Assembly (NCBI GenBank): GCA_965219685.1
Contig: CBDCOH010000002.1
Span: 992,001 to 1,056,000, forward strand
Reading direction: 5' to 3'
Length of the DNA stretch: 64,000 bases
Source of the DNA: Candidatus Spongiisociaceae bacterium
GTDB taxonomy: Bacteria; Actinomycetota; Acidimicrobiia; Spongiisociales; Spongiisociaceae
The position numbers and the translations under genes were made by a program. This document shows, piece by piece, positions 49,564 to 63,998 of the stretch. The stretch's first letter is position 1, and the number at the start of each line of letters is the position of its first letter. The notes beneath the pieces were generated by a model. It saw nothing but the letters and a program-made list of their open reading frames with translations. It ran no database searches and was not told the origin of the DNA.

Positions 49564-49598
49564 CAGCTAGCAACCACCAACTAGCAACTACCAACTAT
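49564..49598. repeat. Heptamer array (CAACTAC-like)5, other arm, inverted relative to 49143-49177
   Basis: CAGCTAG CAACCAC CAACTAG CAACTAC CAACTAT; includes the gpmA stop. Confidence 0.9.
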
Positions 49599-50335
49599 CC
49601 CGCTTGGGCGGCTACGGCTGCGGCCGCGGCTTCGGCAGCCGCTTGGTCGCCCAGGTATCGATCGGAGCGGTGGTTCCAGTCTTCGTCGAGTTCTACGACC
49701 AGGGGGATACCGGTCGGGATGTTCAGTCGGGTTATGTCCTCGTCGCTTATCCCCTTCAGGTACTTGAGAAGGGCCCGGATGCTGTTGCCGTGGGCGACCA
49801 CCACGACCCGCAGCCCTGCGCGGAGATCGGGAACGATTCCCTGTGTCCAGTAGGGCACCGCTCTTGCTACGACATCAGCCAGGCACTCGCTTGCCGGCAA
49901 CTCGTCCGTGGGCACGGATGCGTACCGGGCGTCGAACCGGGGATGCCGCGGATCGTCCGAGTCGAGTGGCGGTGGCGGGATCGAGTAGCTCCTTCGCCAC
50001 TGGAAGACCTGCTCCGCCCCGTGGATGGCTGCGGTCTCCTTCTTCTCCAAGCCTTGCAGAGCGCCGTAATGACGCTCGTTGATCCGCCAACTGCGCTTCA
50101 CCGGGATCCAGTGGAGGTCCATGCGGTCGAGGGCGATGTCGGCAGTACGGATAGCTCGCCTCAGCACCGAGGTGTGAACGACATCGAAGGACAGGCCTTC
50201 GGACGCCATCAGTTCGCCGGCCGATGTCGCCTCATCGATGCCCGCCTCGGTCAGCGGCACGTCGGTCCATCCGGTGAAGCGGTTCTCGAGGTTCCACACA
50301 CTCTGGCCGTGCCTTACGAGTACTACCCTGCTCAC
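49595..50335 (-). CDS. gpmA: 2,3-bisphosphoglycerate-dependent phosphoglycerate mutase
   Basis: [33 protein letters not shown]. Confidence 0.96.
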
Positions 50336-50375
50336 TCGGTCACTCCTTTGTAGAGGGGCTGCACAGAACTACCAC

Positions 50376-50635
50376 CGCTAGCTGATTAGTTCCTAGTCGG
50401 TAGTCTATCGTTGATAGTTGGGGCTTGGTGGTTAACGTTAGAGCGGGTCATTTTCCATCCCTATTGTACTGTTTGGGTCTCGCGTTTACGCCGCAGGCGG
50501 CTCTTCGCAAAATGGCAGCTCCAGGGTTCCAAGTCCAGGAACAGACACGCGCGAGTTACAGATGTGTTGTTCAGCGATGTGTAGCGATCGTAGCGTACGG
50601 TCGCTTCCGGTCAGATCCTTGGAACTACTCGTCTA
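50376..50635 (-). repeat. Dispersed ~255-bp non-coding element, copy B
   Basis: Reverse complement aligns end to end with 1420-1674; identical 24-mer at 50595-50618. Confidence 0.85.
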
Positions 50636-50642
50636 CCTGCCA

Positions 50643-51419
50643 TTACCTCCAGTAGCGGACGCATGCGGCGAACGTCTCCGGGTCGAGCGAGGCGCCTCCG
50701 ATCAGGCCCCCGTCGATGTCGGACTTCGCCATCAGGGCCGCCACGTTACCGGGGTTCATCGATCCGCCGTAGAGGATACGGACCTGATCGGCGGCTGACC
50801 CGTGCCGCCCTCGGATCTGCTCACGGATCCCGGCGATGGCCTCCTGTGCATCGGCCGGAGCCGCGTGGCGGCCGGTTCCGATGGCCCACACCGGTTCGTA
50901 AGCGATGACCAGCCTTCCAATGGCCTCGGTCGGGATCCTGGCCAGAGAACCGGAGACTTGCCGGCGGACCACTTGGGTGGTCTTACCCCCTTCGCGTTGT
51001 TCGAGGGTCTCGCCCACGGCCACTACGGGCGTGACCCCGGCCCGCATCGCCGCCTTGGCCTTGCGGTTGACGGAGCGGTCGTCCTCGCCGAAGCACTGGC
51101 GGCGTTCCGAGTGGCCGACGATCGCGTACGACACCGACAGCTTGGCGAGCATCGATGCCGATATCTCGCCCGTGTAGGCGCCCCGGTCCTCCCAGTGCAG
51201 GTTCTGTGCCACGATCCTGATCCGCAGATCGTCCATCTGCACGACCGTCTGAACCGACCGGAGGGAGGTGAAAGGAGGCGCCACGCCCACCTCCACCCGG
51301 TCGTAGTCGGCCGGGTCGAGCAGGTAGCTCAGTTTCTGCACCCGCTGGATGGCTTCGAGGTGGGAGCCGTGCATCTTCCAGTTGCCGACCATGAGCGGTT
51401 TCCGTGTCACCGCGACCAC
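50643..51419 (-). CDS. tpiA: Triosephosphate isomerase
   Basis: GNWKM, GHSERR, AYEPVWAIGTG, YGGS, GGASL. Confidence 0.97.
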   Translation of the reverse strand: MVAVTRKPLMVGNWKMHGSHLEAIQRVQKLSYLLDPADYDRVEVGVAPPFTSLRSVQTVVQMDDLRIRIVAQNLHWEDRGAYTGEISASMLAKLSVSYAIVGHSERRQCFGEDDRSVNRKAKAAMRAGVTPVVAVGETLEQREGGKTTQVVRRQVSGSLARIPTEAIGRLVIAYEPVWAIGTGRHAAPADAQEAIAGIREQIRGRHGSAADQVRILYGGSMNPGNVAALMAKSDIDGGLIGGASLDPETFAACVRYWR

Positions 51420-52591
51420 CGTTCCAGCGCCTTCACACCAGGAAGGACCCGGCCTTGCAACAACTCGAGGCCCGCGCCTCCTCCCGTGGACAGATGGTCG
51501 AGGTCGCTCTCCCGCCCGACCATGCGCAGCGCGGCGACGGAGTCACCCCCTCCTGCCACGGTGAAGGCGTTGGAGTCCGCGACAGCCTCGGCCAGAGCGG
51601 CGGTTCCCAACCGGAAGGACTCCCACTCGAAGACCCCCATCGGGCCGTTCCAGAACACGGCCGCGGACCCAGCGATCACCTCGGCGAACCGCTCGGCTGT
51701 TCGGGGGCCGATGTCGAGGCCCATCGAGTCCTCATCCAACGACGACGCGTCGAGCGTGGTGGAACTGGCGTCAGGGGCGAATCGATCTGCCGCCACGATG
51801 TCGACCGGGAGCACCAACCGGTCACCCAACTCTCCTCGGAGTATCTCGGCCAGGGAGTCGAAGTAGTCGGGTTCGACCAGTGAGTCCCCCACCTCGTAGC
51901 CATCGGCGGCCAGGAGGCTGAAACACATACCTCCGCCGACCAGCATGGTGTCCACGGCGGGAAGCAGGGCCTGGATGAGGGGGAGCTTGTCGGATACCTT
52001 GGCTCCTCCCAAGAGGACCGTGAACGGTCGCGGAGGGTGGTCCGTCAGGGTACGGAAAGCCTCGAGTTCGCGGACGAGCAGGGGTCCCGCCGCCGATCTC
52101 AGGTGATCGGTCACTCCCGCGGTGGATGCATGGGCACGGTGGGCCGATCCGAAGGCATCGAGGACGAAGAGGTCCGCCAGTTCGGCCAGTGCGGCAGCGA
52201 GACCGGCCTCGTTGGTCGTTTCACCGGGGTGGAAGCGGGTGTTCTCGAGGAGAACCACGTCCCCGGGCCCGGCCCGCGCGACGAGGTCCCTGGCGTCCGG
52301 CCCGACCGTGTCGCGGGCCGAGGCCACCGCGAACCCGCCGATACCGGACAGGGCGGCTGCCACAGGCGCCATTCGCAGTTGCTCGTCGACCCGCCCTCCT
52401 GGACGTCCCAGGTGACTGCACACGACCACCGCGGCGCCCGCGTCCCTCAGCCGGGCGATGGTCGGCGAGGTTGCCCGCAGGCGGAAGTCGTCGTCGACCC
52501 TGCCGTTCTCGATCGGTACGTTCAGATCCGATCTGAGAAGCACCGTGCGATCCTCGACCTCGAGGTCGGCGAGGGTCAGGAACGACCGCAT
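51407..52591 (-). CDS. pgk: Phosphoglycerate kinase
   Basis: DLNVP, SHLGRP, LENTRF, GGAKVSDK, WNGPMGVFE, STGGGA. Confidence 0.97.
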   Translation of the reverse strand: MRSFLTLADLEVEDRTVLLRSDLNVPIENGRVDDDFRLRATSPTIARLRDAGAAVVVCSHLGRPGGRVDEQLRMAPVAAALSGIGGFAVASARDTVGPDARDLVARAGPGDVVLLENTRFHPGETTNEAGLAAALAELADLFVLDAFGSAHRAHASTAGVTDHLRSAAGPLLVRELEAFRTLTDHPPRPFTVLLGGAKVSDKLPLIQALLPAVDTMLVGGGMCFSLLAADGYEVGDSLVEPDYFDSLAEILRGELGDRLVLPVDIVAADRFAPDASSTTLDASSLDEDSMGLDIGPRTAERFAEVIAGSAAVFWNGPMGVFEWESFRLGTAALAEAVADSNAFTVAGGGDSVAALRMVGRESDLDHLSTGGGAGLELLQGRVLPGVKALERWSR

Positions 52592-52628
52592 AGCTCCTCT
52601 CCTTCTTCCATGGGCTTCCCGGCGGGCG

Positions 52629-53522
52629 TTACTCGTCGATGTCGCGGTGGCGGACGGTTGCGTGGTACCCGCGTCCCACCAGCCAACTGGCCAGTTCTTC
52701 GGCCATGGCGACTGAGCGATGGCGCCCCCCCGTGCAGCCTATCCCGATGCTCACGTACGACTTCCCCTCCTCCCTGTAACGGGGAACCAGGAATGAGAGA
52801 AGGTCGCGGAGCCTGTCGAGGAATCCGGCGGCATCGCCGTTGGACAGCACGTGTCGCAGAACCTCGGGGTCTCTTCCGGTGAGAGGCCGCAGTTCGGTCT
52901 TCCAATGCGGGTTGGGCAGGAACCGCACGTCGAACATCAGGTCGACATCCCGTGGCGTGCCGTTCTTGAACCCGAACGAGGTGACAACCAGACGCATCGG
53001 GTGGTTGTCCACCAAGGCGGACAAGTGATGGGCGAACCAACTCCGGAGCTGGTGGACGTTGGTCTCGCTGGTGTTGACGTACATGTCGGCCCGCAGCCGC
53101 AGGTCGGCCATCATCGCCCGCTCCGCGGCGATCGAATCGGCGAGGGTCTCCAGGCCGAGGGGGTGGGGGCGACGGTGCTCCTCGTAGCGGCGGATCAGGA
53201 TGTCGTCGTCGGCGTCGAGGAATACCAGGGTCACCTGGATGCCGGCCTGCTCCAGTTCGCGGAAGTGGTCCTCGAGTTCGTTGAGGGGGAAGCCACCCCG
53301 GCTGTCCACCACTACGGCAAGGTGCCGGCTGCCGTCCCGCAGGTTGTTGAGTTCCACCGCCTGGCGGAGCAGATCCGGTGGGAGGTTGTCGATGACGTAG
53401 AAGCCGAGATCCTCGAGGACCTTGGCGCCGCTCGAACGCCCGGCGCCCGAGAGGCCGGTGAGCACCAGGAGTCGGGGGCTCGCACCCTCTGACCCACTCC
53501 GATCGTTCTCAACTGTTGCCAT
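52629..53522 (-). CDS. rapZ: RNase adapter RapZ (YvcJ) P-loop protein
   Basis: TGLSGAGRS, LEDLGFYVIDNLP, SFGFK, DVRFLPNP, GCTGGRHRSV. Confidence 0.95.
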   Translation of the reverse strand: MATVENDRSGSEGASPRLLVLTGLSGAGRSSGAKVLEDLGFYVIDNLPPDLLRQAVELNNLRDGSRHLAVVVDSRGGFPLNELEDHFRELEQAGIQVTLVFLDADDDILIRRYEEHRRPHPLGLETLADSIAAERAMMADLRLRADMYVNTSETNVHQLRSWFAHHLSALVDNHPMRLVVTSFGFKNGTPRDVDLMFDVRFLPNPHWKTELRPLTGRDPEVLRHVLSNGDAAGFLDRLRDLLSFLVPRYREEGKSYVSIGIGCTGGRHRSVAMAEELASWLVGRGYHATVRHRDIDE

Positions 53523-55341
53523 GCAGCGTAGCGTAGAGGTTCTCGGCGACATTCAGCGGTACCACCCGGGCCAGGCGCTCCAGATCGGCGTTCCTCATCT
53601 GCTTCACTGATCCGAACTCGCGGATCAGGGCCTTCTTGCGAGCCGGGCCGATCCCGTAGACGTCATCGAGGATGGAGTCGATCATGCGCTTGCCCCGGAG
53701 TTGGCGGTGGTACATGAGCGCGAAGCGGTGGGCTTCGTCCCTTACCCGCTGCAGGAGGTGAAGCGCCGACTGGTCCCTAGGGATGATGATGGGTTCGGGC
53801 TGTCCCGGTACGTAGACCTCCTCCATCCGCTTGGCCAGGCCTGCCACCGGTATCTGGAGGTCGAAACGGTCGATGACCTCGACGGCGCGCCCGATCTGTC
53901 CGGGCCCGCCGTCGATCAGCACCAGGGAGGGGGGGTAGGCGAACTTCCCCCGTTCGGAGACGGGCTTTTCCAGATCCTGCATGTACGCCGCGAATCGACG
54001 ACGGATCACCTCCTCCATCGAGGAGAAGTCATCCTGGCCCTGGACCGTGCGGATGCGGAATCGCCGGTAGTGGCCCCGGCGCGGGAGCCCGTCCTCGAGA
54101 ACCACCATGGATCCGACCGTGTGGCGCCCTTGGATGGTGGATATGTCGTAGGCCTCTATCCGCAGCGGGGGCTCGGGGAGGGTAAGCACCGTCTGGAGAC
54201 TTCTCAGGTCCTTGGCTCGGGCGTTGTGGTCGGATTGGCGCCGGAGCCGGTGTCGCAGGAACGCATCGGAGGCATTGGTCTTGGCAGTCTGCATGAGCCG
54301 GCGTTTGGCCCCCCGCTGGGGAACCCTGAGCGTCACCCGGGATCCCCGCCGCCTGGACAGCAGATCCGACCAGGGCTCGTCTGCGGGAGGGAGAGCCTCC
54401 ATCAGGATCAGGCGGGGCGGCGGAGAGGATTCGTCGTAAAGATCACGGAGCACCGTTGCCATGATCTGCGCCGGCGTGACGTCCTCGACCTTGTCGATGA
54501 TGGAACCCAGCCGGCCTACGATCCGCCCGCTCCGTATCTTCAGCACCTGCACCGATACTTCGAGGTCGTCTCCTTCAGTGGCGATCAGGTCGAACTCCTC
54601 GGGACGATCGGTCACCACCTCCTGGCGGGCCACCGCCCGGCGGACATCGCGGACCTGGTCCCTGATGCGGGCGGCCCGTTCGTACTCGAGCCGGTCAGAG
54701 GCGGCGAGCATGCGGCGTTCTAGGCGCACCAACAACTCCTCGGCGCTTCCGGTCAGTACCTGGGTGAGGCCGTCCACGTACTCGGCGTAGGTATCCGGAT
54801 CGACGAAACCGACGCACGGCGCCGAGCAGCGTTCGATCTCGTACTCGATGCACGGTCGGTCCTTCAGCTGGTGGCGGCGGAACACGGTGTCCGAGCAGGT
54901 GCGTATTGGTAGGGACTTGAGAAGCAGGTCGAGCGTGTTGCGGATGGCGTAGGCGTGAGCGAAGGGTCCGAAGTACTGAGTGCCCTTCTTCTTGGAGCCG
55001 CGCATGACCCTGGCGCGGGGCCACCGGTCGGAGCGGGTGATGGCCAGGTAGGGGTAGCTCTTGTCGTCCCTAAGCCGGATGTTGAACCGGGGAAGGTGCT
55101 CCTTGATCAGGGAGTACTCGAGAAATAGCGCCGCCACTTCGCTATCCACCACTATCCACTCGACGCGGCTGGAGGATTCGATCATCGCCCGGGTACGCGG
55201 CGCGAGGTCTCTCGAGAAGTAGGACGCCACGCGCTTGCGGAGCGACTTGGCCTTGCCGACGTAGGTCACCTGCCCATAGGTGTCCCGGAACAGGTAGGCG
55301 CCTGGTGCGTCGGGAATCTCGGCTGATGAAGGTCGCTTCAC
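53509..55341 (-). CDS. uvrC: Excinuclease ABC subunit C
   Basis: YVGKAKSLRKRV, RDDKSYP, RIEAYDIS, IDGG.GQ, RDEAHRFA, HhH. Confidence 0.97.
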   Translation of the reverse strand: MKRPSSAEIPDAPGAYLFRDTYGQVTYVGKAKSLRKRVASYFSRDLAPRTRAMIESSSRVEWIVVDSEVAALFLEYSLIKEHLPRFNIRLRDDKSYPYLAITRSDRWPRARVMRGSKKKGTQYFGPFAHAYAIRNTLDLLLKSLPIRTCSDTVFRRHQLKDRPCIEYEIERCSAPCVGFVDPDTYAEYVDGLTQVLTGSAEELLVRLERRMLAASDRLEYERAARIRDQVRDVRRAVARQEVVTDRPEEFDLIATEGDDLEVSVQVLKIRSGRIVGRLGSIIDKVEDVTPAQIMATVLRDLYDESSPPPRLILMEALPPADEPWSDLLSRRRGSRVTLRVPQRGAKRRLMQTAKTNASDAFLRHRLRRQSDHNARAKDLRSLQTVLTLPEPPLRIEAYDISTIQGRHTVGSMVVLEDGLPRRGHYRRFRIRTVQGQDDFSSMEEVIRRRFAAYMQDLEKPVSERGKFAYPPSLVLIDGGPGQIGRAVEVIDRFDLQIPVAGLAKRMEEVYVPGQPEPIIIPRDQSALHLLQRVRDEAHRFALMYHRQLRGKRMIDSILDDVYGIGPARKKALIREFGSVKQMRNADLERLARVVPLNVAENLYATLHGNS

Positions 55342-55514
55342 GGGGTGGCTCCTGTCACCTGCAAGGCTAGTGCCCGTTGTCGGTGGCCCGTTGTGGGTTG
55401 CCGGCTGTCGGAGTGACTCCGGCGACGAGGGGGACTACCTGAAGTGCCGAACCATGCTCGTGGACCCTGCGGAGCGTCTTGAGGGTGTCCTATTCGGGTC
55501 GGGCGCCGGGCCGG

Positions 55515-57599
55515 TCAGCCGAAGGCGCCGAACCATCGCTCGTGGACTTGGCGGTAGAGGCCGCTCTCGATCAGCTCGAGCAAGGCCAGGTTGACTCGCT
55601 CGCGTAGTTCGGGATCCGCCTCGCTGAGCATGAGGGCGTACTGGACCCTCTCGAAGAGCGGTCCCACCGTGGTGATCGCGCCGGCTCCTTCGTGGGCGGT
55701 GTGGAATTGCAGGACCGGGGCGTCGAACACGATGGCTTCGACGTCCCCTTCCTCCAGGAGCCGGTACGCCTCGTCGATGTCGTCGACCAGGACCGGGCCG
55801 ACGCCGACCGCCACCAGATAGGCGTCGCCAGCTGACCCGGAGACTGTGGCCACCCGGTGCCCCGGAAGATCCCCAGGTCCTGATATGTCACCGCGCAGTT
55901 CGTTCACGGCCAGCGACGACGCGATAGAGGCCGTGAAGCTGGCGAAGACCAGGGTGCCCAGCGCGATCCAGACAAGCGCGAAACCCCGACCCAGCCCGCC
56001 TCGCGCAACCTTGTCACCGTACCCGACCGTGCTCATGGTGACCACCGACCAGTAGAAGGAGTCCCATATGCCGCGTCGGTAAGGGACGGCGAAGTCGGGG
56101 TTGTGATGGCGTTCCAGCCACCAGATCAGGTGGGCGGAAACCAGTACGACTATCGCGAACACCACCATCAACCACGGCAGGTCCGACGAGGCGATAGCAC
56201 GGAAGAAGGTCACGATCCGCTGTCCCAGTCCCGGTGAGGCGTGGGTGGGAGCCATCACCGTGAGACCGGTGTCGAGGACCGGCAGCGAGAAGTCCACCCT
56301 CTCCTCCCGGGATCCGGTCACGGCTACGCCTCCCAGTCCCACCTGGGCGATGCCCCGAGTTATGTCGTCCATCTGCTTGGCGACGGTGTCGACCGCGTAG
56401 ATCTCGACCTGCATGCCCAGGTGAGCTGCGATAAGGCGGATGAGCGCCACCTCGAACCCGCTGTAGGCACGGTTCTCGTAGATGACGAAGGGCGGAAGGG
56501 CGCGCGCCGCCACCCGGAGTACGCCTCCCGTAACCGGGGTGGCCTGTTGCTGAGCGGCGAGCACCAGGGCATCGGGGTCGGCCCGGTGTATCCACTCTGA
56601 GACCAGGGCCTCGTTGGCGAGAGCCCAGTCCTCCGCATGGCGACGGAAGTCCTCCGGATCTCCCTCGTCAGCGACCATCAGGGCGTTCTGCGCCGAGATG
56701 TCCTCCATGGGGATCACCACCTGTTCCAGGAGCTTCCGTACGGCGGGGTTGTGCTTCAGGAAGCCGGAGTTCGCCACCGCCCTGATGTCGTTGGGAGGCC
56801 AACCGACCTGGCACGGATCGTTCGCGCATCCGGGAATCCCGGGGATGGAGGTCCGGTCGACGAAGGCTTCCTGGTCAGGTGGGAGGGAGGGGAACGGGGT
56901 TTCCAGCCACACCACATCCCGGCCGGGAACTAGTTCTCCTACCGTCCAGTTGGGGGTCCATGTGTAGTAGAGCACGGGCTCTCCGGCCCGGTGGCGAGCG
57001 ATGGTCTCGGAGATGAGCGGCGAATAGTCCCCCTGGATCTGCTCGATGGTGCCGGATAATCGATAAGTGCTCAGGTGGTGGTCGATGACGTCGGCGCAAG
57101 CCCAGCCGGCGTCGCAGCCGATGAGGTCCGCCTTCCCATTGCCGTCGAGGTCGAACAGGGCTGCCAGTGACGGGTCGGCCAGATCGCCGAGGTTCGTAAT
57201 TCCGTGCTCCGAGGCAGTGGCCGAATCGACGAAGTAACCCTGCAAAGCCCCCGCGTCGACCTGAGTACCCACCGTCTCGACGACTTCCTGCTCGAGTTGA
57301 CGATCGTGGCTCGGGAACCACCCGTTGACCCAGAGGTCGACGTTGCCCGCTGCCACCGAATGGTAGAACTCGTCGTTCTCCATCGTTACCGGACCATCGA
57401 CACGGTACCCGAGGCGTTCGAGAAGAAGCTTGTACACCTCCGCCTGGAACCATCCGGTGTCCCAAGTCGCCCGGGCCATCCGGACCCGCGGATCGTCCGG
57501 CGTCTCGTGATCCGGTTGTCCGGCCCCAGGCCCGGTCCCAACCCACAGGAGCAGAACTGTCACCAGGACTCCCAGAACAGCTAGCGGTGTTCGGCGCAT
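55515..57599 (-). CDS. GluR0-like ligand-gated K+ channel with N-terminal ProX (glycine betaine-binding) domain
   Basis: Signal peptide; ProX motifs; S1 (PPF..TGSREERVDFS); M1; pore WSVVTMSTVGYGD; SFTASIASSL; S2 (FDAP...RWFG). Confidence 0.9.
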   Translation of the reverse strand: MRRTPLAVLGVLVTVLLLWVGTGPGAGQPDHETPDDPRVRMARATWDTGWFQAEVYKLLLERLGYRVDGPVTMENDEFYHSVAAGNVDLWVNGWFPSHDRQLEQEVVETVGTQVDAGALQGYFVDSATASEHGITNLGDLADPSLAALFDLDGNGKADLIGCDAGWACADVIDHHLSTYRLSGTIEQIQGDYSPLISETIARHRAGEPVLYYTWTPNWTVGELVPGRDVVWLETPFPSLPPDQEAFVDRTSIPGIPGCANDPCQVGWPPNDIRAVANSGFLKHNPAVRKLLEQVVIPMEDISAQNALMVADEGDPEDFRRHAEDWALANEALVSEWIHRADPDALVLAAQQQATPVTGGVLRVAARALPPFVIYENRAYSGFEVALIRLIAAHLGMQVEIYAVDTVAKQMDDITRGIAQVGLGGVAVTGSREERVDFSLPVLDTGLTVMAPTHASPGLGQRIVTFFRAIASSDLPWLMVVFAIVVLVSAHLIWWLERHHNPDFAVPYRRGIWDSFYWSVVTMSTVGYGDKVARGGLGRGFALVWIALGTLVFASFTASIASSLAVNELRGDISGPGDLPGHRVATVSGSAGDAYLVAVGVGPVLVDDIDEAYRLLEEGDVEAIVFDAPVLQFHTAHEGAGAITTVGPLFERVQYALMLSEADPELRERVNLALLELIESGLYRQVHERWFGAFG

Positions 57600-57656
57600 C
57601 GATTCATCCGGTTAGGGGAGCCGAAGCGTAGCGAGACGGCAGCACATCTGTACGAG

Positions 57657-57690
57657 AGATAAAGAAAACTGCTCTAAAGATGAAGAAAAC
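57657..57690. promoter_or_regulatory. Direct repeat AGAT(A/G)AAGAAAAC x2 in divergent promoter
   Basis: Copies start at 57657 and 57678 (21-bp period) in an AT-rich spacer. Confidence 0.45.
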
Positions 57691-57816
57691 GAATAGTTTC
57701 CCGACACCCAAAGCACACTGATATGTAGGGTCACATAACCGGGAGAGGACTGGGTCCGCCCGGTGGCGTCTAGAGAGAGGAGCGATAGATGGTTTGGTAC
57801 GACGTGGGACAACGCC

Positions 57817-59586
57817 ATGGCTGACCACGACCAGGACCTAGACCTCACAAGTATCTCGGAGGCCTATGACGACTGGGAGCGGGACGAAGAACGCCGCCGA
57901 GAGGCAGCCATCCGGGATCGTGGGCACTTTGAGGGTCTTCAGATCGATCCGGACATCGACTTCTATCCCGAGGTAGCCGACCGGGAACCCGGTGACAAGA
58001 ACATCGTCAAGTGGGGATTCGACATCCATCCCCAGGTGACGTTCTACGCTGCAGGCTTCCTGCTGGTCTTCATCGCGGCCACTCTGATCTTCCCTGATGC
58101 AGCGGGCGGCGTGTTCAGCGCCATCCTCAACTTCATCAACGAGAAGGTGGGCTGGCTGTACATAATCTCGTTCAACATCTTTATCGGGGCGGCGCTCTAC
58201 TTCGCCTTGGGCAGGTACGGCAAGATCCGACTAGGCGGTCCGGGGGCCCTTCCGGAGTTCTCCACCGCCGCTTGGTACGCCATGCTGATCTCGGCCGGTC
58301 TCGGAATCGGGCTGATGTTCTGGGGTGTGGCAGAGCCGATCTTCCACCTGACGGCACCGCCTCCCCTGTTCGATGTAGAACCGTTGTCGACGGGCGCAGC
58401 TAGGGCCTCCCTGGCGACCTCCTACCTCCACTGGGGGATCCATGGATGGGCGCTGTACGGCCTGGTAGCCCTCGCATTGGGGTTCTTCGCCTACAACCGG
58501 GGATTGCCCCTTACCTTCCGTTCGGTCTTCTACCCGATTCTCGGGCCGAGGATCTACGGCGGATGGGGCAACGCCATCGACATCCTCACCGTTGTGGCCA
58601 CCCTCTTCGGTTTGGCCACCTCGCTGGGATTCGGCGCCTCACAGGCTGCCGCGGGACTGAACAAGGTCTTCGGTGTACCGGATACCCTGTTGACCCAGAT
58701 ACTGCTGATTGCCGGTATCACGGGGCTGGCCACCATCTCGGTGGTGGCGGGCTTGGACGCCGGAGTCAAGAGGCTGAGCGCGCTCAACGTATGGCTGGCC
58801 GCGGCCTTCCTCGTCTTCGTGCTTCTGGTGGGTCCCACCCTGCTGGTCCTCTCGTTGTACGTGGAGAGCATCGGGGTCTACATCCAGATCCTGCCCGAGT
58901 TCTCGTTCTGGAACGCCGCGCTGCTCGACACGCAGTGGCAGCAGTGGTGGACCATCTTCTACTGGGGATGGTGGATCTCCTGGTCCCCCTTCGTCGGTAT
59001 GTTCATCGCGCGAATCTCGAAGGGCCGCTCGGTGCGGGAGATGATCATCGGTGTGATCGTCCTTCCCTGCCTGCTGTGCTTCCTGTGGTTCGCGGTGTTC
59101 GGTGGAGCGGCCATGGATCTCCAGATGCGAGGTACGCTGGACGTGGCCACTGCCGTCAACGAGAACGTGGCGACCGCATTGTTCGTGATGCTGGAGGCCT
59201 TCCCATGGACCTTCTTCGTCTCGATAGTCGGCATCCTGCTGCTGGTCTCCTTCTTCGTCACTTCGTCGGACTCGGGATCGCTGGTGGTGGACCACCTGAC
59301 CTCGGGTGGCAAGCTTGACTCGCCCAAGCCGCAGCGCGTGTTCTGGGCGATCATGGAAGGCTTCGTGGCCATCGTGCTGCTGATCGGAGGCGGCCTGTCG
59401 GCTCTCCAGACGGCTGCCGTGGCTACCGGACTGCCATTCCTCTTCGTGCTCCTGATCATGCTGTGGAGCCTGAAGAAGGCCTTCGACGAGGAGCTCGACC
59501 TGCTCGAGAGCCACTATGACGAGGCCATCTTCCAAGCCCAGCACAGCGGTCTGATCGAGCGACTGGGAAGAGGAGGTGAACAGTGA
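57817..59586 (+). CDS. BCCT family (betaine/carnitine/choline) transporter
   Basis: GIGLMFWGVAEP, HWGIHGW, WTIFYWGWWISWSPFVGMFIARISKGR, FFVTSSDSG. Confidence 0.95.
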   Translation: MADHDQDLDLTSISEAYDDWERDEERRREAAIRDRGHFEGLQIDPDIDFYPEVADREPGDKNIVKWGFDIHPQVTFYAAGFLLVFIAATLIFPDAAGGVFSAILNFINEKVGWLYIISFNIFIGAALYFALGRYGKIRLGGPGALPEFSTAAWYAMLISAGLGIGLMFWGVAEPIFHLTAPPPLFDVEPLSTGAARASLATSYLHWGIHGWALYGLVALALGFFAYNRGLPLTFRSVFYPILGPRIYGGWGNAIDILTVVATLFGLATSLGFGASQAAAGLNKVFGVPDTLLTQILLIAGITGLATISVVAGLDAGVKRLSALNVWLAAAFLVFVLLVGPTLLVLSLYVESIGVYIQILPEFSFWNAALLDTQWQQWWTIFYWGWWISWSPFVGMFIARISKGRSVREMIIGVIVLPCLLCFLWFAVFGGAAMDLQMRGTLDVATAVNENVATALFVMLEAFPWTFFVSIVGILLLVSFFVTSSDSGSLVVDHLTSGGKLDSPKPQRVFWAIMEGFVAIVLLIGGGLSALQTAAVATGLPFLFVLLIMLWSLKKAFDEELDLLESHYDEAIFQAQHSGLIERLGRGGEQ

Positions 59587-60524
59587 TCAAGAGATCGAGC
59601 ACACTGATCGCCGCTCTAGCGGCTTTCGTGCTGATGCTTTCGGCGTGCGGCGTGCAGGACGAAGGTGGTCCCGTGTCCATGGCCCGGGCGAACTGGAGTT
59701 CCGGCTACATGCAGGCTGCCATCTACGCGCAACTGATCGAGGAGCTCGGGCACGAGGTCACCGATCCGGCGGCCGCGACCCTCAGCCCCTACTCGTTCTA
59801 TCCGGCCCTGGCTGCCGGACAGTACGACCTGTGGGCCAACGGGTGGTTCCCTCTCCACGACATCTACCTCGAGGGAGAGAACGTCACGGGCCAGGCGGTG
59901 GATCTGCCGATCGAAGCGGTTGGATGGCAAGTCGCCGACGGCGCCACTGACGGCCTGATGATCGACAAGGCCACGGCTGACAGCTACGGCATCAACTCGA
60001 TGGACGGCGTAGCCGCCAATGCCGGTCTCTTCGACGGCGACGGCGACGGCAAGGCCGACTTGTTCGGATGCAACGTCGGATGGGGTTGCGAAACCGCCAT
60101 CAACGAGCAGATCGCCGATGAGAGTTGGGGCTCCAGAGTGGAGCAGATCTCAGGCACCTATGACGATCTGGCCGCGGGGGTCGTGGGCAAGGTGAACGCC
60201 GGTGAACCGGCGCTCTTCTACGCCTGGACGCCGAACTGGACCAACACCGTCCTGGTGGCCGGGGACAACGCGGTCTGGCTGCAGTCGGCGGTCAACGACA
60301 TCCGCGCGGTGGCCAACACCGACTTCCTGGACGCAAACCCCGACATTGCCCGCCTTCTCGAGGTGGTAGCGATCCCGCTGAGCGACATCGCCGCTCAGAA
60401 CGCCAAGATGGCGGCAGCCGACGAGTACTCCGAGGCTGATGTCGCGGCCGACGCCGAGGCCTGGATCGCCTCCAACCGCGACAAGGTCGACAGTTGGCTG
60501 GAATCGGCACGAGCCGCCGGCTGA
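59583..60524 (+). CDS. ProX-like glycine betaine/proline-binding lipoprotein
   Basis: Lipobox LSAC; NGWFP, DGDGDGKADLFGCNVGWGC, YAWTP; GTGA overlap with BCCT stop and GGAGG ribosome-binding site. Confidence 0.9.
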   Translation: MIKRSSTLIAALAAFVLMLSACGVQDEGGPVSMARANWSSGYMQAAIYAQLIEELGHEVTDPAAATLSPYSFYPALAAGQYDLWANGWFPLHDIYLEGENVTGQAVDLPIEAVGWQVADGATDGLMIDKATADSYGINSMDGVAANAGLFDGDGDGKADLFGCNVGWGCETAINEQIADESWGSRVEQISGTYDDLAAGVVGKVNAGEPALFYAWTPNWTNTVLVAGDNAVWLQSAVNDIRAVANTDFLDANPDIARLLEVVAIPLSDIAAQNAKMAAADEYSEADVAADAEAWIASNRDKVDSWLESARAAG

Positions 60525-60559
60525 TAGCTCTAGAACCGAGCTAGCAAGCAGCAGAGAAC

Positions 60560-60596
60560 AAGACCCGGCTCCCCATCTCAAGGGGAGCCGGGTCTT
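60560..60596. terminator. Hairpin terminator between convergent genes
   Basis: AAGACCCGGCTCCCC-loop-GGGGAGCCGGGTCTT. Confidence 0.8.
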
Positions 60597-60624
60597 CGCG
60601 AGGTCCGCTTTTTTGGACCCTGGA

Positions 60625-61320
60625 TCATCGCCGCCATCGCAGTGCCATGAGGTGTGGGATCCCCCGATGTTTCGCCAGGATTGGGTCTCTGGTGGCCGCG
60701 CCCGAACCTACGCCCCGCTCACGCACCTCTTCCAGCATCCATCCCGATGCAGCCGCCCCGGTTAGCAGCGTCCCGATCGGTCGGTGGATGAACTCGACGA
60801 AACGGTCTCCGGCCGGGTCCCTCGTGCGGCCCGTTTTCAAGTAGTCCCCGAACCTCCAGAAGAGTTCCCCGTCAGTCGGGTCGAGCACCGGCCCCGAGTG
60901 TGGTGCGGTGTAGACCGGATGGTTGATAACCGCAGTCAGCGTTCCCCCGGGCCGGGTCACTCTCGCGGTCTCGGCGAAGAACCCTTCGGCGTTCTCGAAA
61001 TGTTCGAGCGCCAGCACCACGTACGCCCCGTCGACCGCCGCATCCCTCACGCAGGCCAGGTCCGGCAGGCGGTGGAGGAAGACCGGGTGACTACGCGCGG
61101 CGATCCCGGCCAGATCGATGTTGATGTCCACGCCGATCGCAATGGCGCCCCGCTCTGCCGTCACGTCCTGCATACGGCCGTCCCCGCATCCGAGGTCGAG
61201 CAGGACCTCGCCCGGTAGCGGCCGGAACACCTTGAGGAAGAGCGGCACCACCTCCTCCCGGTAGGCAGGATCATCGGCTTCCACCAGCCACCAGTCGGCT
61301 AGTCCGTTCCAGTCGTCCAC
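60625..61320 (-). CDS. Class I SAM-dependent methyltransferase
   Basis: LLDLGCGDG, GVDI, RVTRPGG, INHP. Confidence 0.85.
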   Translation of the reverse strand: MDDWNGLADWWLVEADDPAYREEVVPLFLKVFRPLPGEVLLDLGCGDGRMQDVTAERGAIAIGVDINIDLAGIAARSHPVFLHRLPDLACVRDAAVDGAYVVLALEHFENAEGFFAETARVTRPGGTLTAVINHPVYTAPHSGPVLDPTDGELFWRFGDYLKTGRTRDPAGDRFVEFIHRPIGTLLTGAAASGWMLEEVRERGVGSGAATRDPILAKHRGIPHLMALRWRR

Positions 61321-61372
61321 ATCGATCCCCGACTGAAGAGAGGTCGGGAACGGGATTCCGCCGGTTGCTCCT

Positions 61373-61921
61373 TCACCGTCCGAGCTCCCACTGCTTCACC
61401 ATCCGATGTTGCGCTGCTGTCTGGGGAGTCGCCATGTAACCGCCCTTCCTGTCACCCTGAAGGCGCAGTCTTTGCACCAGTTCGATCGCGGCGCCGGCCC
61501 CTGCGTAACCATGCCTCCGCAGCCAGCACCCCACCACGGTGCCCGTCCGTCCGCTCCCACCCCAGCAGTGAACGTAGACACTGCATCCGTGCTCGAGGTG
61601 CCGGTCGATCACATGGAGTGTGGTCACCATCTCCGCTGCGGCGGTCACCCCCATGTCCGGGATCTGGCGGCGAACCACCAGCGCGTGGCGGTCAGTCGCG
61701 GGGATGTCGTAGCGGTTCATGTGAGCGTCGGTGCCACCGGGATAGTCCTGGGTAAGGTTCACGAATACGTTGACACCGGCATCCAGCAATTGGGTCAGCT
61801 TGCTGCGTGACCCGACCGGGTTGGGATATGCGCCGGCAGCGAAGCGCCCGGGGACCACCCAGTAGGACCGATCGGTCGGACCGATCTCCCCTCTCCCGGC
61901 CAGCTCCAGGTCCAAGAACAT
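61373..61921 (-). CDS. Protein-tyrosine/dual-specificity phosphatase family protein
   Basis: YWVVPGRFAAGAYP, IPDMG, HCWGGSGRTG (CX5R), PQTAAQ; start uncertain. Confidence 0.85.
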   Translation of the reverse strand: MFLDLELAGRGEIGPTDRSYWVVPGRFAAGAYPNPVGSRSKLTQLLDAGVNVFVNLTQDYPGGTDAHMNRYDIPATDRHALVVRRQIPDMGVTAAAEMVTTLHVIDRHLEHGCSVYVHCWGGSGRTGTVVGCWLRRHGYAGAGAAIELVQRLRLQGDRKGGYMATPQTAAQHRMVKQWELGR

Positions 61922-61993
61922 CCGGTGACTCCCCTTCGCTCCCGCTACCGATGCGGTTGAGGCTAGAGGATCTGTTCCAAGGCTATTCCGTCC

Positions 61994-62027
61994 CCCCATT
62001 CACCATTCACCATTCACCATTCACCAT
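61994..62027. repeat. Heptamer array (CACCATT) x4-5 directly after the uvrA stop
   Basis: Minus strand reads TAG (ATGGTGA)4 ATGGGG. Confidence 0.92.
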
Positions 62028-63998
62028 CTAAAGGACGTCGCGTAGGAACTTACCCGTGTACGACAGCGGCACCTGGGCCACCTGCTCCGGTGTTCCGAGG
62101 GCGATCACGCGACCTCCCTCGTCGCCTCCTTCGGGTCCCATGTCGATCAGCCAGTCGGCGGAACGTACCACGTCGAGGTTGTGCTCGATGATGACGACCG
62201 TGTTGCCTCCGTCTACGAGCCGATGCAGGACCTGCAGCAGCTTGCGGGTGTCCTCGAAGTGGAGGCCGGTGGTGGGCTCGTCGAGGATGTACAGGGTGTT
62301 TCCAGTGGCTCGCTTGCCAAGTTCGGAAGCCAGCTTGACCCGTTGTGCCTCGCCGCCCGACAGCGTGGGAGCCGGTTGTCCGAGGCGTATGTAACCCAGT
62401 CCTACGTCGTAGATGGTCTGGAGGATGCGAGCGATGGGCGCCTGCGCTTCGAAGAAGGTGAGGGCCTCCTCCGCCGGCATGTTCAGGACGTCGGCGATGG
62501 ACATCCCTTTCCAGAGCACTTCGAGCGTGTCCCGGTTGTAGCGCCGACCCTCGCACACCTCGCACGGGACGTAGACATCGGGAAGGAAATGCATCTCGAT
62601 CTTGATGTTCCCGTCACCCCGGCAGGCCTCGCAGCGGCCGCCCCGGACGTTGAAGGAGAAGCGGCCCGGAAGGTAGCCGCGGGCCCTTGCCTCCGGGGTC
62701 GACGAGAAGAGCTTTCTGATCCGGTCGAACACTTTCGTGTAGGTAGCGGCGTTGGACCTGGGGGTTCGGCCGATCGGCGATTGGTCGATGTTGATCGCCT
62801 TGTCCAGTTGCTCCGCGCCTTCGATACGGCGGTGGCGGCCGGGGACGGCCCTCGACCGGTAGAGCTTGTGGTGGAGGGCCTTCGAGAGGATCTCCTGGAC
62901 AAGGGTGGACTTCCCGCTCCCCGACACTCCGGTCACGGCGATGAGCTTCCCCAGCGGGAAGGTGACGTCCAAGTGGCGTAGATTGTTCTCGGCCGCGCCG
63001 ACCACGGTCAGGGTACGCCCGTCTCCCTCTCGCCGACGGTCCGGTGTGGGGATGCGGCGGCGGCCGGCCAGGTAGTCGCCGGTTATCGACGTCGGCTCGG
63101 CGACGATGCCTGCCACGTCCCCTTCCGCGACGACATGGCCGCCATGTTCCCCGGCTCCCGGTCCCAGGTCGACCACGTAGTCTGCGGTACGAATGGTCTC
63201 CTCGTCGTGCTCCACCACGATCAGCGTGTTGCCCAGGTCCCGGAGCCGGAGCAGGGTCTCCAGGAGGCGCCGGTTGTCGCGCTGGTGGAGTCCTATCGAG
63301 GGTTCGTCCAAGACATAGAGCACTCCCACCAGGCCCGAGCCGATCTGTGTCGCCAGCCTGATCCGCTGGGCCTCTCCGCCGGATAGGGTGGCCGCTCCCC
63401 GGTACAGGGTCAGGTAGTCGAGGCCCACGTCGAGGAGGAACCGGAGGCGGGCGCGGATCTCCTTGATCACCGGCTCGGCGATCGTGGCGTCGCGGCGGTT
63501 CAACTCCAGGCTCTCCAGGACGTCGAGGGTCTTGCGGATCGAGCGCCGGCACAACTCGAATATGTTGAGGCCGTTGACGGTCACCGCCATCGACACCGGA
63601 TTCAGGCGGGCGCCACCGCACGCCGGGCACGGGACCTCTCGCATGTATTCCTCGTAATGCGCCCGGGCATTCTCGGACTCGGTCTGTTCGTGACGCCGCC
63701 GCAGCACGGGGATCACCCCTTCATATTTTGCCCTGTAGCGCCTGCGCCGACCGAATCGGTTGGTGAACGACACCCGGATGGACAGATCCCCGGTGCCGTA
63801 CAGCACCGCCTGCTGATCCTCCTCGTCGAGCGCGTGGAAGGGTGTGTTCACGTCGAATCCGAGTTCGTCGGCCAGGCCCCTGAGAAGGTGATGGAAGTAA
63901 CGGTTACGGTTGTCGGACCAGGGGGCGATCACCCCCTCGGCAATGGAGAGTTCGTCGTCCGGGATCACCAGCAGGGGGTCCACCTCGAACTTGGTTCC
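62028..63998 (-). CDS. uvrA: Excinuclease ABC subunit A, 5' end outside window
   Basis: Two LSGGEAQR signatures, [19 protein letters not shown], Zn fingers. Confidence 0.97.

Follow-up and report, generated by a model that had tools for sequence, protein, structure and literature searches.

This locus raises the question of whether a glycine-betaine-binding clamshell and a glutamate-receptor-type K+ channel are really encoded as one protein, and what such a protein would do for the cell. Within the window, the whole 64,000-nucleotide stretch of DNA that we analyzed, the minus strand at 55515-57599 holds a single uninterrupted gene for a protein of 694 aa, P0001, stop codon included. As originally predicted, this is one unbroken frame, which starts with ATG and has no internal stops; the open frame reaches just 4 codons 5' of the ATG (698 aa). 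The domain order of P0001 is signal peptide, ProX/OpuAC domain (aa 38-340), flexible linker, and a GluR0-type S1-M1-P(TVGYGD)-M2-S2 channel. We rechecked every motif and coordinate of the original prediction in the translation and all were correct. The features of the gene and its neighbors are given below.

55515..57599, minus strand: whole gene of the ProX-GluR0 fusion P0001 (Pfam, NCBIfam, 65/66 loci intact, independent contig)
57516..57599, minus strand: predicted signal peptide, aa 1-28 (hydrophobic N-terminus without lipobox Cys; presumed cleavage)
56580..57488, minus strand: ProX/OpuAC-type clamshell, aa 38-340 (Pfam, NCBIfam, 1r9l alignment and structure match)
56520..56579, minus strand: ProX-to-S1 linker, aa 341-360 (conservation 0.35; predicted disordered)
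56235..56519, minus strand: S1 half with T428 and R431, aa 361-455 (2pyy match)
55905..56234, minus strand: pre-M1 helix, M1, pore helix, filter, and M2 with SFTASIASSL, aa 456-565 (Ion_trans_2, Lig_chan, model)
56013..56030, minus strand: TVGYGD K+ selectivity filter, aa 524-529 (sequence, conservation)
55518..55904, minus strand: S2 half with S589 and D626 (FDAP), aa 566-694 (2pyy match, model)
57600..57762, no strand: divergent intergenic region of 163 bp that separates the channel and BCCT genes (presumed promoters)
57763..59586, plus strand: BCCT-family transporter P0273, divergent from the channel gene (Pfam BCCT, E 3.5e-184)
59583..60524, plus strand: stand-alone ProX-type lipoprotein P0272 (LSAC lipobox, three cage Trp kept)

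The frame was intact at 65 of 66 related Acidimicrobiia loci, the lone exception ending at a contig end; homologs are therefore not always split into two genes. We looked for a stop or frameshift in P0001 and found none, and the frame is also continuous in a 7386-base contig from run X5, which belongs to a study other than that of the probable source run, X1. This contig covers P0001 from end to end with 37 substitutions and 0 gaps. All three domains expected by the original prediction, OpuAC, SBP_bac_3 and Ion_trans_2, were found by Pfam, and the profile matches to P0001 far exceed chance. Moreover, both domain sets occur in all of the proteins, at least 120, in each of two listings of relatives. 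Hence, we rejected the explanation that an assembly or gene-calling error joined a ProX gene to a GluR0 gene, the likelihood of which is vanishingly small. The N-terminal 28 residues are poorly conserved (0.38) and form a helix (6-19) with low pLDDT in the model.

The original prediction placed a complete ProX-type domain at about aa 38-340, and profile and fold matches both support this. Pfam OpuAC matched aa 38-325 of P0001 (E 7.9e-48, 163.7 bits versus a cut-off of 21.2), and the NCBIfam ProX equivalog reached 334.3 bits with a cut-off of 215. Escherichia coli ProX (1r9l) aligned to the domain with an E-value of 1.4e-64 and about 37% identity, and the modeled domain matched 1r9l with a TM score of 0.90 and an rmsd of 1.9 Å. 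The ProX motifs are NGWFP (aa 92-96), DLDGNG (aa 150-155), GCDAGWAC (aa 161-168) and YTWTP (aa 212-216). In the 1r9l alignment, W94, W166 and W214 correspond to W65, W140 and W188 of E. coli ProX, Trp140 presumably being the third cage Trp. H98 corresponds to H69 and C162/C168 to C136/C142, so that the cage Trp, His69 and the Cys136-Cys142 pair are common to both proteins. P96 and P216 match conserved prolines flanking the ProX cage; the available part of PMC8601584, referring to Schiefner 2004, describes the Trp65/Trp188 box and cis-prolines of ProX. The E. coli protein is a free periplasmic component of the ProU ABC importer, whereas the domain of P0001 is covalently joined to an ion channel and its locus lacks ProV and ProW genes.

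We followed conservation in 66 Acidimicrobiia sequences (57-95% identity) and in a broader set of 121 drawn from other lineages (40-59% identity). The claim of an intact three-Trp cage held in the alignment to 1r9l and across relatives: all three Trp are kept in 66/66 Acidimicrobiia sequences, and in the broader set W94 and W166 are present in 121 each and W214 in 105, with F (15) or Y (1) in the others. Some distant members are without cage Trp, the W166 equivalent being absent from P0126, P0127 and P0130. The clamshell holds a second Cys pair, C258/C263, in addition to C162/C168. We considered the GC-x4-PC motif formed by this second pair as a fusion-specific interface and rejected it, since it is also present in 32 of 59 other ProX-type representatives. 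No LIVBP/ANF_receptor-type domain was among the 7 Pfam matches at E-values up to 0.01.

The channel half shares with GluR0 of Synechocystis PCC 6803, and with the ligand-binding domain of Nostoc punctiforme GluR0 (2pyy), the S1-M1-P-M2-S2 order; the K+-channel filter, the lack of a helix after S2 and an Arg/Asp amino-acid site are common to GluR0 and P0001. GluR0 is reportedly glutamate-gated and K+-selective. In contrast to GluR0, P0001 has about 330 extra N-terminal residues, which make up the complete ProX clamshell, and its gene is linked to BCCT and binding-protein genes. Pfam SBP_bac_3 spans aa 362-691 (5.4e-23) and Ion_trans_2 aa 482-563 (2.2e-14) is nested within it, which shows a binding fold split by a two-helix pore module; Lig_chan matched aa 476-579 (1e-9). 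The best solved match to S1S2 is 2pyy (E 2.7e-35), which aligned in two stretches, 361-451 and 569-691. R431, in the motif TGSREERVDFS (aa 428-438), aligns with the Arg of the AERE stretch of 2pyy, and D626, in FDAP (aa 625-628), with the Asp of VFDAP. In such sites the S1 Arg holds the alpha-carboxylate and the S2 acidic residue the alpha-amino group of the amino-acid ligand. R431 is kept in 66/66 Acidimicrobiia and 119/121 broader sequences and D626 in 66/66 and 120/121; together with T428 and S589 they are nearly invariant across the 121. Position 426 is Ala in P0001, and G (80), S (26), A (9) or T (5) in the 121-sequence set. It is presumably Ser/Thr in GluR0 and GluA2, as judged by alignment, so the S1S2 ligand of P0001 may not be glutamate.

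The predicted helices of the pore are M1 at about 474-496, the pore helix at 507-523 and M2 at 535-565, the last containing SFTASIASSL (aa 554-563). P0001 ends within S2 without an M4, and the final helices that the model shows, 663-679 and 681-690, are part of the clamshell. It is very hard to credit that P0001 is a non-conducting sensor or a decaying fusion whose channel part no longer passes ions. The filter has degenerated to a GREGWG-like stretch in two distant paralogs, P0123 and P0134, but TVGYGD is invariant in the 66 Acidimicrobiia and the 121 broader sequences, and the pore region (aa 456-565) is the most conserved part of P0001 (0.82). The K+ filter, S1 Arg and S2 FDAP site are thus intact, as had been predicted, in the sequence and in its relatives.

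The two clamshells differ in how they are joined to the rest of the protein. The linkers between the ligand-binding domain and the membrane are constant in length (43-44 and 20 residues), unlike the spacing between ProX and S1, which (W336 to P370) amounts to 32-34 residues in the 66 Acidimicrobiia and 33-56 (median 38) in the 121 broader sequences. The monomer model had a pTM of 0.49, a linker (346-357) with pLDDT below 50 and no confident packing of ProX on S1S2. Residues 355-694 of the model matched the ligand-binding and transmembrane domains of AMPA receptor chains with a TM score of about 0.5.

The ProX-GluR0 fusion is a large family that extends over several phyla, which the original prediction had missed; the architecture search it proposed returned a widespread fusion. 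Of the long proteins listed as relatives of an unfused GluR0 homolog, at least 120, every one has the fusion, and some fused relatives are named from Desulfobacterales, cyanobacteria and Actinomycetia. Unfused relatives have 360-390 aa and are 33-40% identical. A tree built from the channel part placed every one of the 26 fused rows in one supported set nested among unfused GluR0-type channels. This set has 31 rows, and a single origin of the fusion is not strictly implied because the other 5 are 'unfused': P0175, P0192 and P0199 have their own signal peptides, P0180 looks N-truncated and P0176 has a different N-terminus. NCBI names family members 'ABC transporter substrate-binding protein ProX', a label that covers half of the protein and hides the channel; the automatic annotation of some family records labels both halves. 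We found no characterized OpuAC/ProX-GluR0 fusion, and no BCCT linked to a binding protein, in the literature searched, in line with the original prediction, which knew of no characterized example. The available text of Ger et al. 2010 (PMC2950845) had 0 matches to betaine, OpuAC, ProX, N-terminal or fused, and its supplement may list members under other names.

Eukaryotic iGluRs (AMPA, NMDA, delta, plant GLR) have two stacked extracellular clamshells per subunit and a pore of the same fold, and P0001 is predicted to be alike. It differs from them in its distal domain, which is of the OpuAC/ProX and not the LIVBP/ANF_receptor type, in the absence of M4 and the presence of the K+-channel filter TVGYGD, and in that its fusion arose inside the bacterial GluR0 clade. 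The OpuAC/ProX-type fold and the lack of a LIVBP/ANF_receptor match indicate that the distal domain was gained independently of the eukaryotic amino-terminal domain. Of the original proposal of a second clamshell layer, the gain independent of eukaryotes is thus borne out by fold, Pfam and tree, while the layering itself was not reproduced as confident packing in the monomer model.

The genes next to the channel gene pointed to betaine. The start of P0272 overlaps the stop of the BCCT gene (P0273), and P0272 is the closest paralog in the genome of the ProX domain of P0001, with 47% identity over aa 38-234. P0273 scored 541.6 bits with NCBIfam betaine_BCCT, below the cut-off of 650, and among solved structures 8zw8 ('trimethylamine transporter') is its best relative and BetP the next. 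With a BCCT below the glycine-betaine cut-off and a trimethylamine transporter as nearest structure, a methylated amine other than glycine betaine could be the shared ligand. A BCCT gene adjoins the channel gene at 63/65 Acidimicrobiia loci, and at 61/65 both a BCCT gene and a free binding-protein gene flank it. We also analyzed 22 distant fused loci (34-53% identity, GC 37-71%). BCCT and/or free OpuAC genes were adjacent in 14 of these and both in 9, in three gene orders, and ABC transporter genes turned up next to the channel gene at none of the loci examined. The remaining eight had neither a BCCT nor a binding-protein gene in the fetched flanks; four of them (L106, L107, L110, L122) had full 8-kb flanks and four (L095, L108, L111, L112) lay on short contigs. 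At one distant locus, L098, all three are arranged as an operon, their ends overlapping, and no ABC genes were found in the vicinity. The free binding protein of L098 is of the Bacillus subtilis OpuAC type (2b4l, E 9e-61), only about 21% identical to the ProX type, and appears to be a non-orthologous substitute in this module. Overall, the channel, a BCCT and a free betaine-binding protein constitute a conserved module, which the original prediction did not mention.

No ABC importer permease or ATPase was present among the 10 ORFs scanned at 49595-63983, the single ABC_tran match being UvrA. Elsewhere in the genome, a canonical ABC ATPase with CBS domains adjoins a tandem ProX gene. A search for sigma-70-like promoters in the channel/BCCT region found none, the one terminator-like site is inside the channel gene and at the level expected by chance, and Rfam gave no match at 53000-61500 with E-values up to 0.1. 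The genome also encodes TrkH and two other Ion_trans_2 channels, so P0001 should not be needed for bulk K+ uptake.

We consider it fairly probable that P0001 is a K+ channel gated via its amino-acid clamshell, tuned by a betaine-sensing outer clamshell and working together with betaine uptake. Taking as established the architecture and folds of P0001, its conserved filter and ligand positions, the wide distribution of the family and the linkage of the genes, we infer which ligands bind, which domain gates, which way K+ flows and what the channel does for the cell. P0001 would be a GluR0-type, presumably tetrameric, K+-selective ligand-gated channel with two extracellular clamshells per subunit. 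The membrane-proximal S1S2 clamshell with its amino-acid-type site would open the pore, as in GluR0 and iGluRs, since the linkers that connect it to M1 and M2 do not vary in length. The distal ProX clamshell, on its flexible tether of about 20 residues, would bind a glycine-betaine-type quaternary amine in the three-Trp cage and may tune gating, be it through allostery or, in its loaded state, by docking on S1S2. Allosteric tuning by a distal clamshell has a precedent in the NTD of NMDA receptors. Most likely, the module couples K+ movement to betaine uptake; the usual location of the fusion beside a betaine transporter suggests that K+ flow and osmolyte uptake are linked. The coupling could serve charge compensation or let a compatible solute replace K+, the ionic osmolyte.

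Other readings of the same data differ in the role of the ProX domain. It might itself be the physiological sensor of a channel gated by betaine as the one ligand, with S1S2 as a mechanical transducer or permanently occupied. The Trp cage is conserved to the same degree as the filter, the whole genomic context is betaine-related with nothing related to amino acids, and position 426 is mostly Gly/Ala rather than Ser/Thr. According to the available part of bioRxiv 10.1101/2021.01.27.428399, ectoine-dependent currents were obtained from a GluR0 in which the ectoine-binding protein EhuB had been substituted for the ligand-binding domain; the coupling of a compatible-solute binding protein to a GluR0 pore can therefore work. 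However, EhuB takes the place of S1S2 in this engineered chimera, whereas the ProX domain of P0001 is a natural addition atop an intact S1S2. The near-invariance of R431, D626, T428 and S589 is hard to explain without a ligand, and ProX is linked to the pore solely through a variable, disordered tether, and we think gating by betaine unlikely.

We regard it as quite improbable that ProX is a tethered delivery protein, which hands betaine to the BCCT or an ABC importer while the channel is an anchor or has an unrelated function. Membrane proteins for betaine uptake with fused binding domains are known, for example the permease 7ahc, the tether is flexible and a BCCT is nearly always adjacent. 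However, the module already has a free or lipid-anchored binding protein, which would make a second, tethered one redundant, and in the same organism a lipobox alone serves as anchor (P0272). Moreover, the transmembrane and filter part is the best-conserved part of the protein, and the fusion partner is always the same type of channel. We know of no BCCT that uses a binding protein, and nothing relevant to this was found in the literature searched. There is a precedent for an OpuAC-family protein with a signaling partner: in the available part of PMC8050422, the betaine/choline/carnitine binder CosB of Halobacterium salinarum feeds the signaling protein CosT and not a transporter. CosB is a separate protein that acts on a chemotaxis transducer, whereas the ProX domain of P0001 is fused to an ion channel.

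An extension of the favored reading, tuning of an amino-acid-gated K+ channel by betaine, is that the three genes encode one osmolyte-exchange machine, in which the binding protein feeds betaine to the BCCT, and the channel, reading external betaine through ProX and an amino acid such as glutamate through S1S2, opens a K+ path. We consider this extension doubtful. If true, it would be the first binding-protein-assisted BCCT, and the uptake of compatible solutes would be electrically balanced, with K+ as primary ionic osmolyte exchanged for the solute.

Prokaryotic iGluRs figure in reviews as single-layer channels and the amino-terminal domain as a later, eukaryotic addition, and the legend of the modular figure in bioRxiv 10.1101/2021.01.27.428399 shows the ATD solely in metazoan receptors. 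The ProX-GluR0 family, which draws on another class of binding protein, is a natural bacterial counter-example of wide distribution and a small, tractable system for studying the tuning of an iGluR-type gate by a distal clamshell. If the osmolyte-exchange extension is true, a two-layer, two-ligand iGluR evolved in bacteria independently of eukaryotes. The near relatives of P0001 are mostly Acidimicrobiia named as sponge-associated taxa, and hence a role in sensing host-derived methylated amines is possible. The family unites in a single molecule and locus what matters most in osmoadaptation, namely K+, a site for an amino acid and one for betaine, and the BCCT and orphan binding protein alongside make a direct link between compatible-solute uptake and K+ flux testable. 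The exchange machine, if real, would put a molecule to the K+ movement seen during the accumulation of compatible solutes.

The fused channel gene is a 694-codon ORF on the reverse strand (55515-57599) that starts with ATG, contains no internal stop codon and is preceded by only four in-frame sense codons. This agrees with the original prediction of a single uninterrupted 694-aa ORF, and every motif position named in it was exact on recheck. The Pfam scan that it had proposed matched the expected OpuAC, SBP_bac_3 and Ion_trans_2 families plus Lig_chan, and the NCBIfam ProX equivalog model scored 334 bits, above its cut-off of 215. The parts of the protein are as follows:

aa 38-325: OpuAC (Pfam, E 7.9e-48)
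aa 362-691: span of SBP_bac_3 (Pfam)
aa 476-579: Lig_chan (Pfam)
aa 482-563: Ion_trans_2 (Pfam)
between S1 and S2, in this order: pre-M1 helix, M1, pore helix, TVGYGD, long M2

The C-terminus lies within S2, without any helix after it. With a G+C content of 65.1%, near the 66.5% of the window, and a GC3 of 0.80, the gene matches its surroundings.

A word-indexed search in which 8000 candidates were scored gave 752 relatives at E ≤ 0.001, and all 120 matches listed of these are 622-748 aa long, are 69-99% identical and carry PF04069, PF00497 and PF07885 together. A search of species-representative genomes located 141 stretches coding for a relative, and 77 loci were retained. Sixty-six of these (L009-L074) match past the ProX part; all are labelled Acidimicrobiia or unclassified 'bacterium' MAGs, with names including Candidatus Spongiisociaceae, Poriferisodalis, Poriferisocius and Aldehydirespirator. 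The frame is uninterrupted over at least 690 aa in 65 of the 66, and the remaining locus ends at a contig edge. Hence, the homologues are not split into two genes, a concern raised with the original prediction along with a frameshift or stop in the linker. The linker has neither, and a contig from an independent study covers the gene from end to end, differing by 37 substitutions and without gaps. These intact frames and the gap-free contig exclude an assembly or gene-calling artefact. In an even sample of the class, 12 of 401 genomes (G000 included) had a full-length match and one more had a partial match, with the matches concentrated in two families (4/5 and 6/48).

Representatives clustered at 50% identity included further full-length fusions at 33-49% identity (proteins P0122, P0124-P0131 and P0134), as well as P0123, whose 1008 aa include two OpuAC domains N-terminal to the channel part. 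P0123 and P0134 (689 aa) are distant fused paralogues that have a GREGWG-like stretch instead of TVGYG and have lost cage Trp residues; they share a longest contig figure of 29437 bases and so may be neighbours. When subjects of 696-2000 aa were searched with the unfused GluR0 homologue P0160 (E ≤ 1e-10), there were 132 hits, and the 120 matches listed all carry OpuAC, SBP_bac_3 and the channel set, making the ProX fusion the only long architecture seen among those listed. The NCBI name prefixes among them include Desulfobacterales, Desulfosarcinaceae, Xenococcaceae cyanobacterium, Symploca and Actinomycetia. The fusion is genuine and, as the architecture search suggested with the prediction makes clear, widespread, reaching beyond Acidimicrobiia.

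Among solved structures, E. coli ProX with glycine betaine (1r9l, E 1.4e-64) is closest to aa 45-340. By alignment counting, W94, W166 and W214 align with Trp65, Trp140 and Trp188, confirming the predicted correspondence of three Trp residues to the E. coli ProX cage, and H98 aligns with His69 and C162/C168 with Cys136/Cys142. We take Trp140 and His69 of E. coli ProX to have ligand-site roles. PMC8601584, citing Schiefner et al. 2004, describes the Trp65/Trp188 box of ProX as held by cis-prolines. The remainder of the fused channel is closest to the Nostoc punctiforme GluR0 ligand-binding domain (2pyy, E 2.7e-35), in a match split into S1 (aa 361-451) and S2 (aa 569-691). R431 lies within a conserved T-x-x-R-E and D626 within V-F-D-A-P, positions that in iGluRs hold the agonist alpha-carboxylate and alpha-amino groups.

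Across the Acidimicrobiia set (66 sequences, 57-95% identity to the window protein), W94, W166, W214, C162, C168, T428, R431, E432, TVGYGD, D626, A627 and P628 are invariant, and H98 is present in 59 and replaced by Gln in the other 7. In a broader set of 121 sequences (40-59% identity), W94, W166, C162 and TVGYGD are present in all, D626 in 120, R431 in 119, W214 in 105 (Phe in 15, Tyr in 1) and H98 in 103. Mean regional conservation across the 66 sequences was 0.82 for the pore module, 0.74 for S1, 0.73 for ProX, 0.67 for S2 and 0.35 for the linker. These patterns indicate that selection acts on all three functional sites, the ProX cage, the S1S2 site and the filter. The S1-to-M1 spacing is fixed at 43-44 residues and the M2-to-S2 spacing at 20, and the ProX-to-S1 spacing varies from 33 to 56 residues; conservation and spacing together fit an S1S2-driven pore with ProX on a flexible tether.

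An AlphaFold2 monomer model (input alignment of 59 sequences) had a mean pLDDT of 81.2, with values mostly of 85-95 in the ProX and S1S2 parts, 58-83 in the membrane part, the expected range for a monomer, and below 50 in the signal region and linker 346-357. The pTM was only 0.49, so the relative placement of the domains is undefined in the model. Its top Foldseek match was 1r9l (TM 0.90 on target, rmsd 1.9 Å, 307 columns), followed by LBD-TMD chains of AMPA and delta receptors.

The genomic context of the channel gene, which was absent from the original prediction, includes two genes:

57763-59586, forward strand, divergent from the channel gene: BCCT transporter (Pfam E 3.5e-184)
59583-60524, forward strand, overlapping the BCCT stop: stand-alone ProX-type protein with lipoprotein signal LSAC and all three cage Trp

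The stand-alone protein is the closest paralogue of the channel ProX domain in the genome (47% identity versus 39-40% for six others). Scanning 10 ORFs at 49595-63983 revealed neither an importer permease nor an importer ATPase, and the sole ABC_tran match there was UvrA. SAM-methyltransferase and dual-specificity phosphatase (PTP-SAK / Tc-R-P families) genes lie between the betaine module and uvrA (60625-61999, reverse strand), and in many relatives the whole block is between uvrA and uvrC. Besides the channel, the genome has eight ProX-like matches (39-47% identity) and encodes other single-frame ProX architectures, namely a tandem ProX-ProX beside an ABC ATPase with CBS domains, LRR + SLH + OpuAC, and SLH + OpuAC (loci L002 1489-3888, L007 1489-4014 and L008 220-3585, all reverse strand). 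A further unexplained output for a ProX-type domain is seen in P0139 (1000 aa), where its fusion partners are SBP_bac_11 and von Willebrand A.

The 65 full-length Acidimicrobiia loci have a BCCT gene in 63 cases, BCCT plus binding protein in 61 and the divergent arrangement in 59. One chromosome, OZ220747.1, carries two fused copies (L023 and L050), so heteromeric channels are conceivable; one copy is flanked by BCCT and binding protein, the other by neither. Because Acidimicrobiia genomes are kin, linkage is tested more stringently by 22 distant fused loci of metagenomic origin (34-53% identity, GC 37-71%). A BCCT and/or free OpuAC gene adjoins the channel in 14 of the 22 and both do in 9, in three gene orders (divergent, BCCT-SBP-channel and channel-BCCT-SBP); neither was found in 8, 4 of them on short contigs. 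At the distant locus L098, channel, BCCT and binding protein form an operon with overlapping ends, near which no ABC components were found, and the free binding protein belongs to the B. subtilis OpuAC type (2b4l, E 9e-61), with ~21% identity to ProX-type proteins. The linkage thus outlasts rearrangement and non-orthologous replacement of one component, which argues for a functional module of channel, BCCT and binding protein.

The BCCT and an orphan betaine-binding protein are predicted to be co-transcribed in the window (57763-60524, forward strand), in L098 (5178-7794) and in a further distant locus, L104 (10764-13370), with no ABC permease or ATPase accompanying these pairs; the binding protein is a ProX-type lipoprotein in the window and of the B. 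subtilis OpuAC type in the distant lineage. The pairing may point to a binding-protein-assisted BCCT, of which we found no description in the literature, and the orphan binding protein could supply the BCCT or have the channel as its target. The window BCCT, which has an acidic N-terminal extension of ~90 residues, scored 541.6 with the NCBIfam betaine model, below the glycine-betaine cut-off of 650, and its nearest solved relative is 8zw8, a 'trimethylamine transporter' (E 8.4e-151), ahead of BetP. Hence, the ligand shared within the module may not be glycine betaine.

A maximum-likelihood tree built on the channel part (91 rows, 26 fused) places all fused rows within one 31-row set (SH-aLRT 97), which is nested among the remaining 60 rows, all unfused GluR0-type channels. 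Of the 5 'unfused' rows inside the set, 3 have their own signal peptides, 1 is apparently truncated and 1 has another N-terminus. The simplest reading of the tree is a single early fusion followed by a few losses; alternatively, the ProX domain may have been gained more than once. Whether once or more, it was acquired within bacteria and differs in fold type from the eukaryotic NTD, and the predicted independent gain of a second clamshell thus holds.

In every defining feature tested, the fused channel agrees with GluR0-type channels and with the ProX/OpuAC fold. Unlike ABC-importer binding proteins, it had no importer permease or ATPase gene among the neighbouring ORFs scanned and so does not class as a subunit of an ABC importer, and it lacks both the LIVBP-type NTD and the M4 of eukaryote-type iGluRs; it is best classed as a GluR0 variant. 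Full-text literature searches gave no description of an OpuAC/ProX-GluR0 fusion, and the main text of a 2010 survey of prokaryotic glutamate-receptor channels gave zero hits for betaine, ProX, OpuAC or N-terminal. Automatic names at JGI already combine 'proline/glycine betaine ... substrate-binding protein' and either 'voltage-gated potassium channel' or 'amino acid transport', so the sequences are on record yet uninterpreted.

In the GluR0/iGluR family, the pore is pulled open when the S1S2 clamshell closes. We infer that the fused channel would be a tetramer selective for K+, with an alpha-amino acid gating it through S1S2, and that the ProX clamshell would take a betaine-type methylated amine and thereby alter gating, either allosterically, for which the NTDs of NMDA receptors are a precedent, or through docking of closed-form ProX on S1S2. 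It is possible that betaine is the only gating ligand, but the near-invariant Arg/Asp site would then be left to be explained. ProX could also be a tethered delivery domain serving the BCCT; however, a free binding protein is already part of the module, and the most conserved part of the protein is the pore. The invariant filter contradicts a dead channel part.

Transport by BCCT carriers, BetP among them, is coupled to ions and electrogenic, and the direction of K+ flux is set by where the membrane potential lies with respect to the K+ equilibrium potential. A K+ path opening in the presence of betaine could balance charge and exchange K+ for compatible solute, and the purpose of the fused channel would be to couple K+ movement to BCCT-mediated solute uptake.
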